DNA of 64,000 nucleotides from Bacilli bacterium (lineage in GTDB: Bacteria; Bacillota_I; Bacilli_A; RFN20; CAG-826): NCBI GenBank assembly GCA_031556235.1, contig JAVBTH010000001.1, positions 519,009 to 583,008 of the forward strand, read 5' to 3'. Shown piece after piece: positions 43,286-51,480 of this stretch. Each line of letters begins with the position of its first letter. Positions within the stretch are counted from its first letter, which is position 1. Position numbers and translations under genes: made by a program. The notes beneath the pieces are model-generated. The model did not search any database and was not told where the DNA came from. It worked only from the letters and a program-made list of their open reading frames with translations.

Positions 43286-43717
43286 ATGGAGTTTTTAGAA
43301 CTAATAGAGATTGAGTTATTAAAGTCAGTAGGTTATGTGACCATAATATCGGCGGTATTTACAATTATACTAACTAGCATAATTAAGAAGATACTAGTCA
43401 AAAAAGATGTAATATACCCAAATATGTCGAAAGCCCATAAGGATGAAATATTATCAAAAATTGCGCGATATACGGCGCTTGTAAGTTATGCGATTGTATT
43501 CTTTCTTAATTTGTTTCTGACAAAACAAACTATAGAAATAGACGAAAATCTAATCATTTCGCTAACTTGCGGAGGCAGTATGACAATAATTGTCACTAAA
43601 GGAATTTACACAGCATTACACCAAGGTAGCAAAAAGCAACTCGCTTATACCGAGATGGAAAGAGCACTAGAAATCGAACGTTTAGTGGAAGCTGAAATAA
43701 TTTCACTTAAAAAGTAG
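43286..43717 (+). CDS. Small membrane protein (about 3 TM) with a coiled C-terminal tail
   Basis: Hydrophobic segments and a GGAGG RBS upstream. Confidence 0.45.
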   Translation: MEFLELIEIELLKSVGYVTIISAVFTIILTSIIKKILVKKDVIYPNMSKAHKDEILSKIARYTALVSYAIVFFLNLFLTKQTIEIDENLIISLTCGGSMTIIVTKGIYTALHQGSKKQLAYTEMERALEIERLVEAEIISLKK

Positions 43718-43729
43718 AAAGGAGAAAAA

Positions 43730-44443
43730 ATGGAAACAAGTAAAATGCCAGGAATGTCTATAAGTTTTATCAGAAATGAATATGGAAATAAGTTTTTGAT
43801 TTTTAAAAGCGAAAGAATCACTCATGAATTAGAAGATAAACTTCGCTATGGAAGCATTAGAATGCAAATTTGGCTAGAAAAAAAGGTGCGAAAAGCCAAT
43901 GGTAAGAATCGTGTCAAAAAATGGGTTCATCCAGCGGATAAAAGTTCAACAGCACCAGTGAGATTTAGTGAAGAAGAAATTTTATTTAGACAAGGTTGGG
44001 GAGTTAGAACTTACAGTCCAGATTCCGGATTTTGTCCAAGTTATTCTACCACTAACGGATATGTTCCAACGGAATGGGAAGTAACTATAGACGATGTTAA
44101 AAGAGGCTGCATTGAGCGTAAAATTCCCTTCGATGATATAATTTCAAATATTATAACCTATAATGAGGCTCTCGTTTTTGACGAATCTTATAATATAATT
44201 GATGGTCCGTTTGAAATACCTAGTGGAACGGAATTATCACAAATTAGACTTATTGGAAATAGAACAAGTAGTAAAATTGAAATTCGTGTCAAATTAGTCA
44301 TTAAAGAAAATAATCTATTGACTAGTGGGACGTCACTTAATTCAGCTTTAGTAGGTCTTAGAAAAGAAGGGAATCTACCAGATTTTGATCGGATCTTTGA
44401 CGCTGAAAATGTAATGAAAATAGCCGCGATAGTAATTAAATAG
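43730..44443 (+). CDS. Hypothetical protein (237 aa), no recognisable family
   Basis: ORF with an AGGAG RBS, tightly coupled to the preceding gene. Confidence 0.45.
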   Translation: METSKMPGMSISFIRNEYGNKFLIFKSERITHELEDKLRYGSIRMQIWLEKKVRKANGKNRVKKWVHPADKSSTAPVRFSEEEILFRQGWGVRTYSPDSGFCPSYSTTNGYVPTEWEVTIDDVKRGCIERKIPFDDIISNIITYNEALVFDESYNIIDGPFEIPSGTELSQIRLIGNRTSSKIEIRVKLVIKENNLLTSGTSLNSALVGLRKEGNLPDFDRIFDAENVMKIAAIVIK

Positions 44444-44705: not shown

Positions 44706-47700
44706 ATGAGTACAAAAAGAACTGTGTCGATTATACCCAGTTTAACTGGAGTAACAGATAGCAATAATAGACTGACATTAGGTAAAAACATTGGTATAGG
44801 CATTACGATTCCTGCTACCAATCTGAATATAAATGAAAATGAAAAAATCAGCAGTGCGGTATTAATGCTCCGCATAGAGGGTTTTTATACGACTATGACT
44901 GGTTCATCAAATTTCACTGCTTATTTGATCGACAAAAATAATAAAAAAATAGCTTTAAAAGCTTTTAAACTATCCTCAATTCAAAGCGCAATGACAATAC
45001 CTTTGCTATTTGATGTAGGAGGTTTTCTAAAAGAAACCTTGTTGGGCGAAGACATATTATTAGCGCTCAAAATAGATGTGCCTCTCTTAGGAACGCATTA
45101 TTTAAATATTTCTAAACAAGGAGAATTGGTAGTCAGTTTAGAGTCTGTTGAAGAGGATCAAGCAGATGAGGGTGAAACAGGTGATAATGAGTCAGGCGAA
45201 GAAACTGCTTATGAATTAGATATTGACCGAAAAGATAGTGCAGTATCGGATGAAATTAATAAGATTATCTCGCTTACCGCAAGAGGGGCCGAATACTCTG
45301 AAGCGAATGATCCTATTCCTAATGGAGGGTTCACGGTTGGTTTTAATGGATATGGACATGGCGACGTAGATTACGTTGTGGCAGTTAATCAAGTCTTAAA
45401 AGATTTAAAAGATTTTGCAATAGAAAATGTGAAAATGGTTTTGAAAATTGATGATCATAAAAGACAGCAAATCGATGAAAATTTACCACTAGTAGCAATG
45501 GTTCATGGAAGCGACATTCTTGATGTGTTTACAGTGAACAATGATGCAGAAATGGAGTTTGATGTTACTAAAATATTCTTGTCTCCAATCGATAATATAT
45601 TGGTGAAGATTAAATCATTTTCAACTTTATCAAAACTAAACTATATTTTAGTTTCAGAAGATTCGGCTACTTTTAGGATTAAAGTAAAAGAAAAACATAA
45701 CACCGATAGAACTAGTATTACTAAAACATTAAAAAATCGTGACGAATTGCGTATCGATTTGTGTGATGGAAATCAAGTTCATGAGCACGTTTTGCTTACT
45801 AAAGAAGAAAGCCAACTGCCATTCGATATAACCCAAATTGGCAGCAAGCATGGTATAAAACTCAATATTGAGCAAAAACTTGAAACTGATGTAAAATTTG
45901 GAAATCTAGAATCAGATGGAAAAATTTCACGTGTAATCGAGGCAAATGGTGAGTCAAGGATATTTGTTGAAAAGTATTTTTATTATATGGGTGATAAAAG
46001 AATATTTGTTTCTAAGAATGACGTAATCAAAGTTAGTGAAGAAAAATATGAGATTAAATTAGAAGATAAAATACATGAAGTTTTCAAAGCTAGTATTGAT
46101 GAGAATGGAAATGCTTTAGTTTCTAGTAAAGAAGAAGATATAGATGTAGGTTTATTCTTAAAAAAATTTGGAGACAAAGTCTCTGAAGTTAAAATGTATT
46201 GTTACATTAATGATACAAGAAAAGAAATAACAATTGATGATAATATAGCAAATGTATCATCTATATATTACTTTGAGCATAGTGGAGTTTTTCCATTGAG
46301 TGACGTGGCAATCAGGAAAGATTCACTAGGAACTTATTTTGTATGCGACGGTGAGAGATTTGTGGTTGGAATAAAGGATCATAAGTTTGAAGTTATAGAT
46401 AAAAGTAACAAAATATATTTTCAGATTCCAACGAAATATTCTATAGATAATCATGATAATGCGCAAATAGCTGAATACGAATTAATAGAAATTTTTTCGG
46501 AAAAAGATAATATTTCTAAACATCTCCCAGAAATTTTTAAAAATGAAGATTTACTAATGAAAATCGAGGAATTAGAACAAACAAATGACTATATTAAGCA
46601 AATTAAAAATCAATTAGATGAAATAGAAATAAACAAAAATGATGCAAGACAAAAAACATATAAAGAAATTTTTAATATTAAAAACATCCTGCAAGACATT
46701 TATAATGAATGGAATAGTTTTAATAGAGATGAAGAATGGAATAAAGTAAAAAACATTTACTTTCCTGATGAATGTGAATATTTGTCGAAAGAAGATTGTT
46801 ATAAGTATCTTAACGATGCGTTAAATGACTTAGTTATATCTACAGATTTTGTTTTAAACGAATATAATATGTCGAGAATAGTTGAAAGCAAAGATTGTTT
46901 GTTAAGACCACTTAGTACTGGGTTAAATTATAATTTGCCGAGAGAAGTTTTTCTTCCAAAACTTAATGCATGCATAAATTCATTCAATTCTAAGCTTGCA
47001 TACGAAAACGAACAGATACAAAATGATACTATAGAGAAACAAAAAACGAGAATTAGTAAAGAATTAGAAAAATATCAAAATATAAAGAAGAAACTCTTTG
47101 ATGATATAAGGGTTCTATGGAGAAAATATTCATCCGGTCCAGTAAGTTTTATATTAAATCAAGATGAAAACTATTATGGATATGATTCAAAAGGCAGTTT
47201 TATCACCATGGGCAACAAAAAAGAAGAGACGTTGCGAATCATTTATGACGATAAACTCTCAGAATTTGGAGTAATATCGACAATTTATTTTAAAAACGAA
47301 AAGTTTGTTACTTTTTCATATGAGAATAATCAACTTAACAGAGTGAAAGCAGAGACGGGTAAGTTCGTTGAATTGGAAATGCTTGCAAATCAAATCAAGT
47401 ATAACCATAACAATAAATACGATGTTGATATAACTTGGAACGGAGAAACTCTTCGAGTTAGTAATAATGAGCATTATTTAGAAGCATCAAATTTATTTTA
47501 TGACCCACCAATAATTAAAGGAGAATCATGTCATAAATTCTTAAAAGTCGGAGGACTGATTACTAGTTATAATAGTCAAAAAATTGATGGTGGAGAAGAT
47601 ATTTATTTAGAAGAATATGATATTCACTTTATAAGCGATACTGTTACTAAAGTAGAGAATTTACAAAATAAACTAGTTCAGCAATATATCTTTAATCACT

Positions 47701-50700
47701 TAGGTGAAGTTGTGAGCACATTCAACTATTATTTGGAAAACGATCGTGAAAACGTTGAAGATATTGCCTTTAATGCAGTGAAACGCAATATAGGAAACAA
47801 GACTATTGAAGTTAAACAAACGAAAGTAGATATAATTGAACCGATTACTTTTGAAAACGGCATTAATGATTGGATAAGTTCCGCGGGAACAGTCGCAAAT
47901 ATTGCTAGCAATCAGCATTTCACAGGTAGCAAATCTTTAGAGATTGTAGGTGGAATTAACAAAAAGGCTAGCGTTAGTAAGAATATCACTTTAAATAAAT
48001 TTCCGATAAATAAAGCTTTTTCAGTCTCAGTATGGGCTAAAGCTGATGCGATGATTATGAACGACATATGCATTATTAACGAACCAGCAAAATCAGATGA
48101 AGGCAATGTTACTAAGTTTACTTTGCGAGTTGAGACAAAATTTAAAAAACGCTCACAGATTTTTGTAAGTGAGGCTGGTTTTGATGCACTTACAAGTGAT
48201 TGGCAATTACTTTCTGTGCCGGTGTCATTAAGATTTGCAAGCGAATTAAGCGATATAGTTAGTGTAAAAATTGTTCTTAAATATGAATACAACAACGGCA
48301 ATGTTTATTTTGATGACTTACATGTGGGCGAATGTTCGTATTCTCTTATTGAAGTTAATGATGAAGGTGTTGTGGTTTATCAAGAGAGTGAAAATGAAAG
48401 AACATATTATCTAAACTTAGTGGATAAAAAGCCAACGATTTCTTTGACTTTTGATAATGATGGCGAGAAGTATCATAACTACTTTAGTTATGGTGAAAAC
48501 GGTCAATTAGTTAAAGAAGAAAATCATTTAGGAATTATCAAAGAATATTTGTTTGATGAAAAAAATAAGAAAAGAGTCATTAAAACTTATCATAAAGATG
48601 AACCAGCTAATTCAATTTATGAAGAAAATATTTTTGATGAAAATGGTCGCAAAATAAAAGAAAGCACCAGTCGTGGTGGCTATCGTAATTATGGATTGTA
48701 TAATAATTATGAATATCATCAAAATTCTGATTTAGTTAGAAGTTATCAAGATGGTAGAGGTAATAAAACATATTATGGATATGATGAGGATAATCGTCTA
48801 ATAAATATTACTAGTTCGGTTAATGATGAAGAATGTTCGACATCAATCAAGTACGCTGGAGAATATATATGTAGAATGAGGACAGGAGATAATGAATATA
48901 CATATTCATATGATACTCGAGGACGTTTGTTAAACTTTAATATCAATAATCAAGAATATTTAAATAGCTCTTTTGAAGAAATTGACTTTGAAGATGTAAC
49001 AGTTACAACATACGGAACAGCGGAACAGTTTGTTAGCAAAGTAAGTAAGGATAAAAAATCAAATGTAATTATTTATAATGGTGAAATGTTACAGGAAATA
49101 AGTAAACTTGATCATGATACATACGAGATTAAGGACTATTTAAATAAAGCAATATATTTAATAGATGAAGAATCGGTTGACTGTAGAACACTTGATGCAA
49201 GTGAATTGATATATAGAAAAACGGTAAATCCACACATTCATAGTGTAAATTATGAAATTAACAATTGTGGAACAATAAAAGAATATACCTACATTACTCA
49301 TTATGATAATTTATTAGATCAAAAAATTAAAGAGTATAGTATTAATGAATCAACTAAGCAACTTTTTGACTATGATTTGCTCAATCGCGTTAAAAAGATA
49401 TGTATTTCTGAAAATGATAATAATTTGCTCGAATATAATTATAAATATTTAAAAGCTGGAGACTATGCAAGTAATATTATAAACAAAGTTACCAGATTTG
49501 TTTCAGAGGAATTAGAAAAAGAAACAAATTATAAATATGATGAAATAGGCAATATTATTGAAATATTGCAAAATGGTGAGACCACACATCGTTACAAATA
49601 TGATAGTGTTAGTCGTTTAGTTAGAGAAGATAATAAAGTTTTGAATTTAACTAATTTGTTTAGCTATGACTGTAATGGAAATATTTTGAGTAAAACATGT
49701 TATGGGTTTGCAAATGGAAAGTTAATAGATAAATTTTCAGGTAATAAACATGTATACACTTACGATAAGGACAATCAAGACCGTTTAATTGACTTTAATG
49801 GTGAAAAATGTACATATGACAAAATTGGAAATCCAAAGATTTACCGCGACAAAACTCTAACTTGGAGTCACTTACGTGATTTAATTAATTATGGACCCGT
49901 AACTTTTACGTATGGTGCAAATCATATGAGAACAAGTAAAAACTTATACGGCAACATTAGTAAGTATGTTTATGATGGAAATAATTTAATATTTGAAACG
50001 AGAAGTGATGGAACGACTATCGCCTATTTCTATGGCGCAGAGGGAATATTGGGATTTGAATACTGCGGGGAAAAGTATTTCTATGGAAAAAGTTTGCAAG
50101 GTGATGTTGATTGCATATATAATAAAGATGGAAAAATTATAGTAAAATATGAGTACGATGGGTGGGGGAATGTTAGAACTATTAATGGAAATGAAAAAAA
50201 TATAGGCGATATAAATGCGATAAGATATAGAGGATACTATTTTGATGTTGAAACTAATCTATATTACTTAAAATCTAGGTATTATGATCCAGAAACTGGA
50301 CGCTTTATTAATGCAGATGATATAAGCTACCTTGATCCGGAAACTATTAATGGTTTAAATTTATATGCTTACTGCAGAAATAACCCTATTAGATTTAAAG
50401 ATGAAATGGGCCGTTTTCCAAATAGTGATAGTGATGCCTATGAATTATTGGCAGCGGCTCTCGAGTTTAGCATAGGATTTGTATATGCGTTTAAAGCGTT
50501 TGGAATTAATCAAGATCTAAAAACAGCTACTTGGCCTCCTTACATTACAAAATACACTAATGAATTAACGGCGTTAAATAATACTTTGAAAATTGTCCAA
50601 AAAGCAGCAACTGTGTTAGCTGTAATTGGAATTGCTATTTCTACGATAGAAAACATAAATTCGGACATAAAAAAAGGTTACTCAACTGGAAGAATAGTAT

Positions 50701-50963
50701 CAAATGCCATCGTTAATACTGTAGTCAATTCCATAAGTACATTTGGCTTTGCAGCTTTAGGCTCAAAAATTGGTGGAGTAATAGGATCGTTTATTCCAAT
50801 TCCAGGTGTCGGTACCGCGATTGGAATGGTGATAGGGGCAGTGATTGGGTATGGTGTGGGTTTAGTATTTAACGCTGTGATGAATTTGAAAATAGGCGGC
50901 AAAAGTATTATGGATCATATTAGAGATGGATTTTATAACTTTTGGAAAAGTATATTTAGATAA
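44706..50963 (+). CDS. Giant Rhs/YD-repeat polymorphic toxin (2085 aa): unknown N-terminal region, acidic stretch, CBM4/9-like beta-sandwich, YD repeats, Rhs repeat-associated core, variable C-terminal glycine-zipper toxin domain
   Basis: Many YD repeats (e.g. [61 protein letters not shown]). The Rhs core reads [33 protein letters not shown]...[18 protein letters not shown]. The CBM-like domain is at about 47844-48332 (FENGINDW...[10 protein letters not shown]...FSVSVWAK...WQLLSV...VYFDDLHV). The N-terminus has no signal peptide. Confidence 0.85.
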   Translation: [2085 protein letters not shown]

Positions 50964-50972
50964 TAGTGAGGA

Positions 50973-51407
50973 ATGAAAATGAAAAAAATAAGCTTAGTGT
51001 CAATTGGTATAAAAATAATTATTGCGGTTTTAATTTTAATTTTTCTCGCCGCATTTGTTTTTCTAGCCATTTATGAAGGTCTAACGTCTTCAAACGTATT
51101 ATTCTATATTTTACTGCTACTCGCGATTAGTATAATGATTCTTTCTATAATTTTAAGTTTTAAAAGCAGGATACTAATTAATTATAATGAAAAGTACTTT
51201 GTAGTAAATAAAAAAAAGATAAATTTTTGTAATATAAAAGATGTGATTGTTTCGGAAACCTTAGTTAATAAAAGAATTAAACGTGCTATTATAATTCAAA
51301 AGAATGGAATAGAGGTAGAATTTATGTACATCTGTATTGGAAATAGAAGACAGACGAAAAAAATAATTAGTATTTCTAACGAATTAAAACTCTTAAACAT
51401 TACATAG
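50973..51407 (+). CDS. Putative cognate immunity protein of the Rhs C-terminal toxin (two-TM membrane protein plus small cytoplasmic domain)
   Basis: Sits immediately (9 nt) downstream of the rhs stop with its own GAGG RBS. Two TM helices. Position is typical of rhsI. Confidence 0.5.
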   Translation: MKMKKISLVSIGIKIIIAVLILIFLAAFVFLAIYEGLTSSNVLFYILLLLAISIMILSIILSFKSRILINYNEKYFVVNKKKINFCNIKDVIVSETLVNKRIKRAIIIQKNGIEVEFMYICIGNRRQTKKIISISNELKLLNIT

Positions 51408-51449
51408 AAATGCGATTTAAACATTTAGCGAGTTTTGGTGCAGAGAGAA

Positions 51450-51480
51450 AGGTAAATCATAAAAATGATTTACCTTTTTA
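51450..51480 (+). terminator. Strong rho-independent terminator closing the rhs operon
   Basis: 11-bp perfect stem AGGTAAATCAT-aaaa-ATGATTTACCT followed by TTTTTA. Confidence 0.85.

Follow-up and report, generated by a model that had tools for sequence, protein, structure and literature searches.

A two-transmembrane protein encoded directly behind a glycine-zipper Rhs domain as a probable cognate immunity protein of a small, unannotated family

Pairs of Rhs toxins and their immunity proteins are well understood in outline. To our knowledge, detailed studies of pore-forming Rhs tips and of the membrane-embedded antidotes that accompany them are confined to a handful of pairs, such as Tse5/Tsi5, with next to none from Gram-positive gut bacteria. 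The closest worked-out analogue of the pair described here is Tse5 (RhsP1)-CT with Tsi5 of Pseudomonas aeruginosa, followed by the glycine-zipper toxins of the T7SS. Tse5-CT is located at the C-terminus of an Rhs protein, lacks enzymatic signatures, and acts by entering the cytoplasmic membrane and depolarising it (PMC9637101; also described so in the discussion section of PMC12744356). The gene beside the toxin encodes its partner Tsi5, a small integral membrane protein for which two transmembrane (TM) segments are predicted (PMC9637101). The T7SS systems EsxX/ExiCD, TspA/TsaI (Staphylococcus aureus) and TelE/TipE combine glycine-zipper depolarising toxins with immunity proteins, and the membrane-embedded immunity of the EsxX/TspA type protects against toxin arriving from outside (PMC12744356). 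Additionally, the small membrane proteins YdbS and DdE (bPH_2) have been tied to membrane-active peptide toxins, the leaderless bacteriocins, in Firmicutes (PMC8657885).

The window, i.e., the whole 64,000-nucleotide stretch of a Bacilli genome that was analysed, contains an rhs (YD-shell) polymorphic toxin gene at 44706-50963 on the + strand, which encodes 2085 aa and was assigned by its Rhs core and shell similarity. The Rhs_assc_core model (TIGR03696) matched near the C-terminus, in the last 285 aa, with E 1.1e-21. At the same time, residues 1-1200 (44706-48305, +) gave no match to Pfam or to any other family and contained no obvious signal peptide and no known secretion-targeting domain. 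Two ORFs on the same strand, 43286-43717 (143 aa) and 43730-44443 (237 aa), are located directly upstream of rhs; neither had a match in Pfam, NCBIfam or PADLOC, and a role as accessory or secretion factors of the Rhs protein is possible. Of the two, the 237-aa ORF was not similar to the 188-aa ORF found upstream of the Rhs of the UMGS285-like loci discussed below. The further surroundings consist of dnaX upstream, on the opposite strand, and of prfA, prmC and sua5 downstream, and the GC content along the locus provided no clear island signature.

Directly behind rhs lies the candidate cognate immunity gene (50973-51407, +). The preliminary description had presented it as a 144-aa ORF starting 9 nt after the rhs stop and preceded by its own ribosome-binding site. 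The ORF does comprise 144 aa when read from the first ATG, and the gap from the rhs stop at 50963 is 9 nt to this codon and 15 nt to the second ATG at 50979. The Shine-Dalgarno sequence GAGGA, read directly at 50968-50972 (+), abuts the first ATG and sits 6 nt before the second one, so translation is likely to start at 50979. The public record P0001, with 142 aa, agrees with this start, as does the N-terminus of the homologue P0018 (MKKISLVS...). The ORF, the gap and the ribosome-binding site therefore stand as described, but the true start is probably 50979 and the product 142 aa long. In related loci, AGGAG overlaps the toxin stop or comes just after it, and no promoter-like site was found upstream of the window ORF in the 3' end of rhs. 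The location of the ribosome-binding site at or beside the toxin stop suggests co-transcription, and probably coupled translation, of the toxin domain and the gene behind it.

The rhs-immunity unit is followed, 39 nt past the stop of the window ORF and ahead of prfA (51576-), by a hairpin with a U-run at 51446-51479 (+), a probable intrinsic terminator. A terminator had been noticed here earlier, but its stem, given then as 11 bp, consists of a 10-bp core (GGUAAAUCAU/AUGAUUUACC) that A/U pairs lengthen to 15 bp, with a 4-nt loop and a U5 run. Thermodynamic folding of the 96-nt hairpin stretch resulted in an energy of -20.2 kcal/mol (z = -3.45 versus shuffles); a rule-based terminator scan did not list the hairpin, and its identity as an AT-rich intrinsic terminator is plausible. 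Note that the U-run on the 3' side of the hairpin is matched by an A-run on the 5' side, and transcription could therefore be terminated in both directions.

The Rhs core ends at ...NNPIRFKDEMGRF, and the remaining ~185 aa (Rhs residues ~1901-2085; 50406-50960, +) form the C-terminal toxin domain (CT), which is hydrophobic, with three hydrophobic stretches, and predicted to be all-helical. Counting of GxxxG motifs delimited a glycine-zipper segment at CT aa 119-152 (50760-50861, +) with 25% Gly, in which G136, G140, G144, G148 and G152 follow one another at i+4 spacing as a five-fold GxxxG zipper. An IP(I/L)P insertion within the zipper marks the toxin subtype shared by the window and loci L003 and L019, and the C-terminal CT helix HIRDG(V/F)YNFW is highly conserved. 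Homologues of the CT were found on Rhs C-termini at 36-51% identity. The window CT belongs to no named family: its Pfam matches, to DUF6861 and to Gly-zipper_Omp (PF13488; 18.6 bits vs a cut-off of 25), were all sub-threshold, and Gly-zipper_Omp matched seven of eight CT relatives, with only that of L010 above the cut-off (25.7 bits vs 25). Comparison with PDB chains by sequence gave no match at E <= 10, and the structure model of the CT, with five helices and a pLDDT of 41, was unreliable and too poor for a fold search. By analogy with Tse5-CT, EsxX-CT and TspA, these sequence features point to a membrane-inserting, depolarising or pore-forming toxin.

The zipper was also met on other proteins. 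A 13-residue zipper stretch of the window toxin, SFIPIPGVGTAIG, is identical in P0003, a Dit-like phage tail protein of 235 aa (PF21821, E 4e-24) whose C-terminus bears a glycine zipper, and in P0004, a 153-aa protein with a weak TraT-like match, so the same zipper cassette occurs on very different carriers. In L004, a second, weak match to the CT profile (1865-2155, E 2.2e-5) is located in an ORF at 1331-2194 downstream of the immunity gene, and this ORF may encode another glycine-zipper protein.

Searches that started from the window ORF itself returned very little. A word-indexed protein search found only the query, an exact-sequence contig look-up for P0001 had no match, and exhaustive phmmer against 1.84 billion representatives provided a single relative, P0005 (151 aa; E 4.8e-4 over residues 3-135). 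The search from the CT side led to L001 (a metagenome contig), L002 (an uncultured Clostridiales MAG) and 14 further metagenome loci, and each of these carries behind the CT a two-TM ORF colinear with the window ORF over its full length. A profile built without the window ORF scored it at 43.0 bits (E 1.8e-12), and none of the other six-frame segments of the window (790 in total) matched; among 1000 shuffles that kept the composition of the TM half and of the soluble half, the highest score was 11.1 bits. In a profile search of 5.8 billion proteins, the immunity family was represented by only 15 clusters, with no Pfam domain and no name besides "hypothetical protein" among them; one cluster, which belongs to a common human-gut Clostridiales lineage, has index entries in 544 blocks of the contig collection. 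The family is thus real, small and unannotated, with members of ~140-153 aa. That no family could be recognised for the window ORF from its sequence was borne out, because no Pfam or NCBIfam match reached the threshold; the sub-threshold ones (DUF6095, DUF3262, DUF4131 and DpiB) reflected TM composition only. The ORF had no match in PADLOC, and the immunity profile found nothing among PDB sequences besides chance matches to ribosomal eL20.

To characterise the linkage of the two families, 39 fetched loci and the window were scanned in six frames with the toxin-CT profile and the immunity profile. In 39 of 39 loci and in the window, a colinear homologue of the window ORF comes directly after the CT, and this applies to intact CTs, to those on orphan Rhs fragments and to remnants alike; since most loci are metagenomic and several are near-identical copies from one abundant gut species, this number corresponds to ~15-20 independent sequence pairs. 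At the level of single bases, which was inspected in 17 loci, the gap between the CT and the gene lies between -4 and +10 nt. The pairing is the same for loci reached via the toxin and for those reached via the immunity protein. Among the 39 loci, there was no gene copy without at least a CT remnant upstream and no CT with readable downstream sequence that lacked the gene. The check proposed in the preliminary description, i.e., whether homologues always co-occur with this particular CT, has been run with a uniformly positive outcome, and a conserved housekeeping protein found without Rhs neighbours, which would have spoken against immunity, was not seen in this tiny family (15 clusters among 5.8 billion proteins). 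The conserved, translationally adjacent pair of a CT and a two-TM gene behaves as a polymorphic-toxin module.

This linkage bears on the simplest alternative, an unrelated or housekeeping membrane protein, or even a chance ORF, that merely lies beside rhs. Such a view could draw on the lack of a named family, on the AT-rich, low-complexity sequence, and on prfA, prmC and sua5 located immediately downstream; it is extremely improbable, as both its position and its sequence are kept across 39 loci, the few family members are linked to the toxin without exception, and the shuffle control rules out a compositional match. With the 43.0-bit profile score added to this control and to the 39-locus linkage, the chance or housekeeping reading can be considered effectively refuted.

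Two of the scanned loci had irregular immunity ORFs. The last contig codons of L007 (1360-1409) translate to ...LIHISEPTRRSYI, which we take to resemble sequencing-adapter read-through, and this would explain why the immunity ORF breaks off there. L017 (4141-4561) is the sole locus with a frameshifted immunity gene, at an A-run; this could be a sequencing error or a pseudogene.

The behaviour of the module can be followed in the UMGS285-like loci of common gut Clostridiales (L027-L031, e.g., L027 1-10507), where AMP-binding, PP-binding and BtrH_N genes, a 188-aa ORF, the main Rhs, a DUF6560 gene, an orphan Rhs fragment with its CT, and the immunity gene follow one another. Up to the motif NGLNLYAYCxNNP, the 2076-aa main Rhs and the window Rhs have homologous shells, with 30% identity across ~900 aa, and the CTs behind this motif are unrelated. 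The main Rhs, with its unrelated CT, which is likewise Gly-rich and hydrophobic, is followed by the DUF6560 gene, and DUF6560 is likely the immunity family for this other CT. The 758-aa orphan Rhs fragment carries a CT of the window type, followed by an immunity gene of the window type. The identity of the gene thus switches with the CT and not with the Rhs body.

Orphan CT/immunity modules were found in L018/L019, L027-L031 and L033, and an intact gene accompanies a frameshifted or truncated CT remnant in L003, L016, L024, L025/L026 and L032. L024 (9445-10462) and L032 (780-3028) represent the same site in GCA_964322625.1 and GCA_964318885.1; here, only a frameshifted CT stub of ~60 aa is left between hsp20 and glyS, and the full 153-aa gene is kept. 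The ratio dN/dS was ~0.3 in the decayed-toxin group, including the orphan-orphan pair L024/L032, as estimated from only ~20-26 substitutions per pair. Pairwise identities of toxins and immunity proteins correlated (Pearson 0.83, 45 pairs), although some correlated divergence is expected of adjacent genes regardless of function because they share ancestry. Mean identity was 35% for the immunity proteins vs 52% for the toxins, so the immunity side diverges faster. Moreover, the IP(I/L)P toxins (window, L003 and L019) pair with the immunity subgroup that has no SINPKK(Y/F)C motif.

Apart from these features, two extra ORFs of 162 and 175 aa are present at the hsp20-glyS site of L032, and the site in L024/L032 looks like a decaying insertion. 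In L018 (1467-4215) and L033 (2399-9914), further orphan Rhs C-terminal fragments are located downstream of the pair, each with small ORFs, some of them TM-rich; these are typical orphan toxin/immunity arrays.

The retention of the gene beside toxin stubs and its switching with the CT disfavour both a secretion helper and a holin. A holin-like or release protein would permeabilise the producer and thereby free the signal-less 2085-aa Rhs, and the small size of the window protein, its two TM helices, its basic C-terminal region and its gene position right after a large toxin without an obvious signal peptide would suit such a role. It is nonetheless very unlikely, because it is the CT, and not the Rhs body or N-terminus, with which the gene changes (in the UMGS285-like loci, a DUF6560 gene takes its place behind the main Rhs), and because the gene has also been kept beside stubs and orphan fragments, for which secretion is impossible. 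In addition, no endolysin is present in the window neighbourhood, the only holin-family match was that of one member at E 0.094, and the structure model described below predicts a folded PH-like domain of ~80 aa instead of a short charged tail.

The UMGS285-like loci (L002 1202-1732; L027 10511-11150) have, after the immunity gene, a 41-aa ORF and a multi-TM ORF of 165-176 aa, which are absent from the window and may represent either a further immunity component or a remnant of some other module. If the former were true, the window protein might provide just half of the immunity function, with a second membrane protein encoded elsewhere, as for ExiC and ExiD, which protect only together (PMC12744356). 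This division of labour seems distinctly unlikely here, given that the unit in the window contains no further membrane gene before the terminator and prfA, that the gene stands alone in L024 and L032, and that the extra TM ORFs are not conserved across loci. The linkage to the CT, the tracking of the CT and the persistence beside decayed toxins are comparative-genomic evidence in favour of the immunity function suggested in the preliminary description, and on this basis, the window ORF quite probably encodes the cognate immunity protein of the Rhs CT.

The two TM helices read earlier from the sequence were recovered both as hydropathy peaks of the window ORF at aa 15-31 and 46-62 and in an AlphaFold model. 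This model, obtained with a 15-sequence alignment (mean pLDDT 67, pTM 0.48; moderate confidence), consists of a strand at aa 3-7, helices at 11-35 and 39-64, six strands, and a C-terminal helix at 125-143. The two helices would form a TM hairpin (51003-51164, +) with the short external loop YEGLTSSN, and the six strands with the C-terminal helix a predicted cytoplasmic PH-like domain (51165-51404, +), which the N-terminal strand, with its conserved motif SL(T/V)SxGxK, probably joins in the model; Ser10 and Lys14 of this motif are invariant. Two N-terminal TM helices, a PH-like beta-sandwich and a C-terminal helix cap, the architecture of bPH_2, are thus all present in the predicted structure. 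A Foldseek search with the model gave no match at E <= 0.001. A profile of the C-terminal domain only barely matched the window copy (9.5 bits), so for this copy the PH-like call leans on the full-length alignment and profile and on the model.

The N-terminus contains 3-4 Lys/Arg in most members, including the window copy, with few or no acidic residues; the inter-helix loop of the family, 6-14 residues long, has no net positive charge, and the region after the second TM helix is Lys/Arg-rich. This distribution and the positive-inside rule suggest an N-in/C-in topology with almost nothing exposed outside.

Near-threshold matches of family members to DUF5381 and EbsA-like were colinear and spanned both the TM hairpin and the beta domain, but they concerned 4-5 of 11 members, and all were below the cut-offs. 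The best DUF5381 score was that of the L012 protein (aa 17-129 vs positions 20-138 of 170; 25.6 bits, cut-off 26), the EbsA-like scores were 19.6-20.9 bits vs a cut-off of 25.9, and the window ORF had no match to DUF5381 or EbsA. A literature search found no paper mentioning DUF5381, so a match to this family would add no functional information.

The PH-like build raises the alternative of a CT-specific handling factor, i.e., a membrane-anchored PH-like protein that helps to insert, export or mature the hydrophobic CT. Architecture and size resemble those of YdbS (159 aa) and DdE (141 aa), implicated in the export of enterocin DD14 (PMC8657885); the modelled PH-like fold would be consistent with such a role, and a helper dedicated to this CT would likewise be expected to be strictly linked to it. 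However, a helper serves no purpose once its toxin is lost, whereas intact copies that are under purifying selection persist beside the ~60-aa stubs of L024 and L032. Moreover, Pfam bPH_2 (PF03703) had no match in 11 family members even at E <= 1, nor in 15 members at E <= 0.1, and the Rhs shell itself shields the CT in the producer, as the discussion section of PMC12744356 describes. Overall, a handling factor appears unlikely, and cognate immunity is the function for which a mechanism is considered below.

In the proposed mechanism, the CT would insert into the cytoplasmic membrane of neighbouring cells, where its glycine zipper would form a depolarising channel. The immunity protein would reside in the same membrane in N-in/C-in orientation, with only the external loop of ~6-14 residues facing outwards. 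As there would be hardly any external surface, we propose that it meets the toxin inside the bilayer. The TM hairpin might pack against the glycine-zipper helices of the toxin and block their oligomerisation into a channel, and the PH-like domain, together with the N-terminal strand SL(T/V)SxGxK, might clamp a toxin segment that emerges at the inner face, possibly the C-terminal helix HIRDG(V/F)YNFW. Because Rhs shells encapsulate the CT in the producer, protection would probably be directed mainly against toxin from sibling cells. This binding mode, TM packing combined with a PH clamp, is a conjecture and is considerably less probable than the immunity function itself; EROS binds NOX2 in a two-site way (bioRxiv 10.1101/2023.09.11.557130), so an architecture of this kind can work in such a manner. 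It is possible, albeit doubtful, that the window protein is the founding example of an undescribed immunity family, built of a membrane hairpin and a split, EROS/YdbS-like PH domain in the cytoplasm, that would counteract a glycine-zipper Rhs pore-former both inside the bilayer and at its inner face.

The pair is compact, with a putative toxin of ~185 aa and a candidate antidote of ~142 aa, and it poses the mechanistic question of how a near-surfaceless immunity protein could stop a toxin that comes from outside, for which the combination of two TM helices and a PH-like build suggests a hypothesis. Several DUF families and the YdbS-like proteins may also become functionally accessible for the first time through this pair. 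If the links to DUF5381/EbsA and to YdbS/DdE were true, small membrane-anchored PH proteins could have a general role in guarding Firmicutes against membrane-inserting protein toxins.

Comparison with the known systems places the locus as follows. Like Tse5/Tsi5, the window pair combines an Rhs protein, here with a hydrophobic glycine-zipper CT, with an adjoining two-TM protein, and this likeness is architectural only. Tse5 is a T6SS effector of a Gram-negative bacterium with a PAAR-like N-terminus, whereas the window locus belongs to a low-GC genome with no T6SS genes in view, and the relatives of the window pair are found in Clostridiales MAGs, unlike Tse5/Tsi5 of P. aeruginosa. The T7SS toxins share with the window pair the Gram-positive hosts, glycine-zipper domains on polymorphic carriers, and immunity genes that also occur as orphans. 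They differ in that the carrier is an LXG protein that the T7SS exports and not an Rhs protein, and that the polytopic ExiC and ExiD function jointly; unlike the product of the window ORF, ExiAB and TipE are soluble and belong to DUF5085, and no sequence relationship of the window pair to the T7SS glycine-zipper systems was detected.

YdbS and DdE share with the predicted immunity protein both their size (141-159 aa) and their layout, in which a short N-terminus precedes two TM helices and a single PH-like domain. At the same time, they are paired with the larger YdbT/DdF and with an ABC transporter, both absent from the window locus, and the role proposed for them is export or tolerance and not one-to-one immunity; a literature search combining bacterial PH domains with immunity proteins returned nothing relevant. 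DUF5381 and EbsA-like are Firmicutes families of unknown function, with a colinear, near-threshold likeness only. EROS/CYBC1, a eukaryotic NOX2 chaperone that is 10-15% identical, is very probably an analogue and serves as a precedent for the binding mode only. Set against these systems, the locus appears to be of an ordinary kind, an Rhs toxin with a cognate immunity gene, in which both families are small and unnamed and the build of the immunity protein, as modelled, would be the unusual part.
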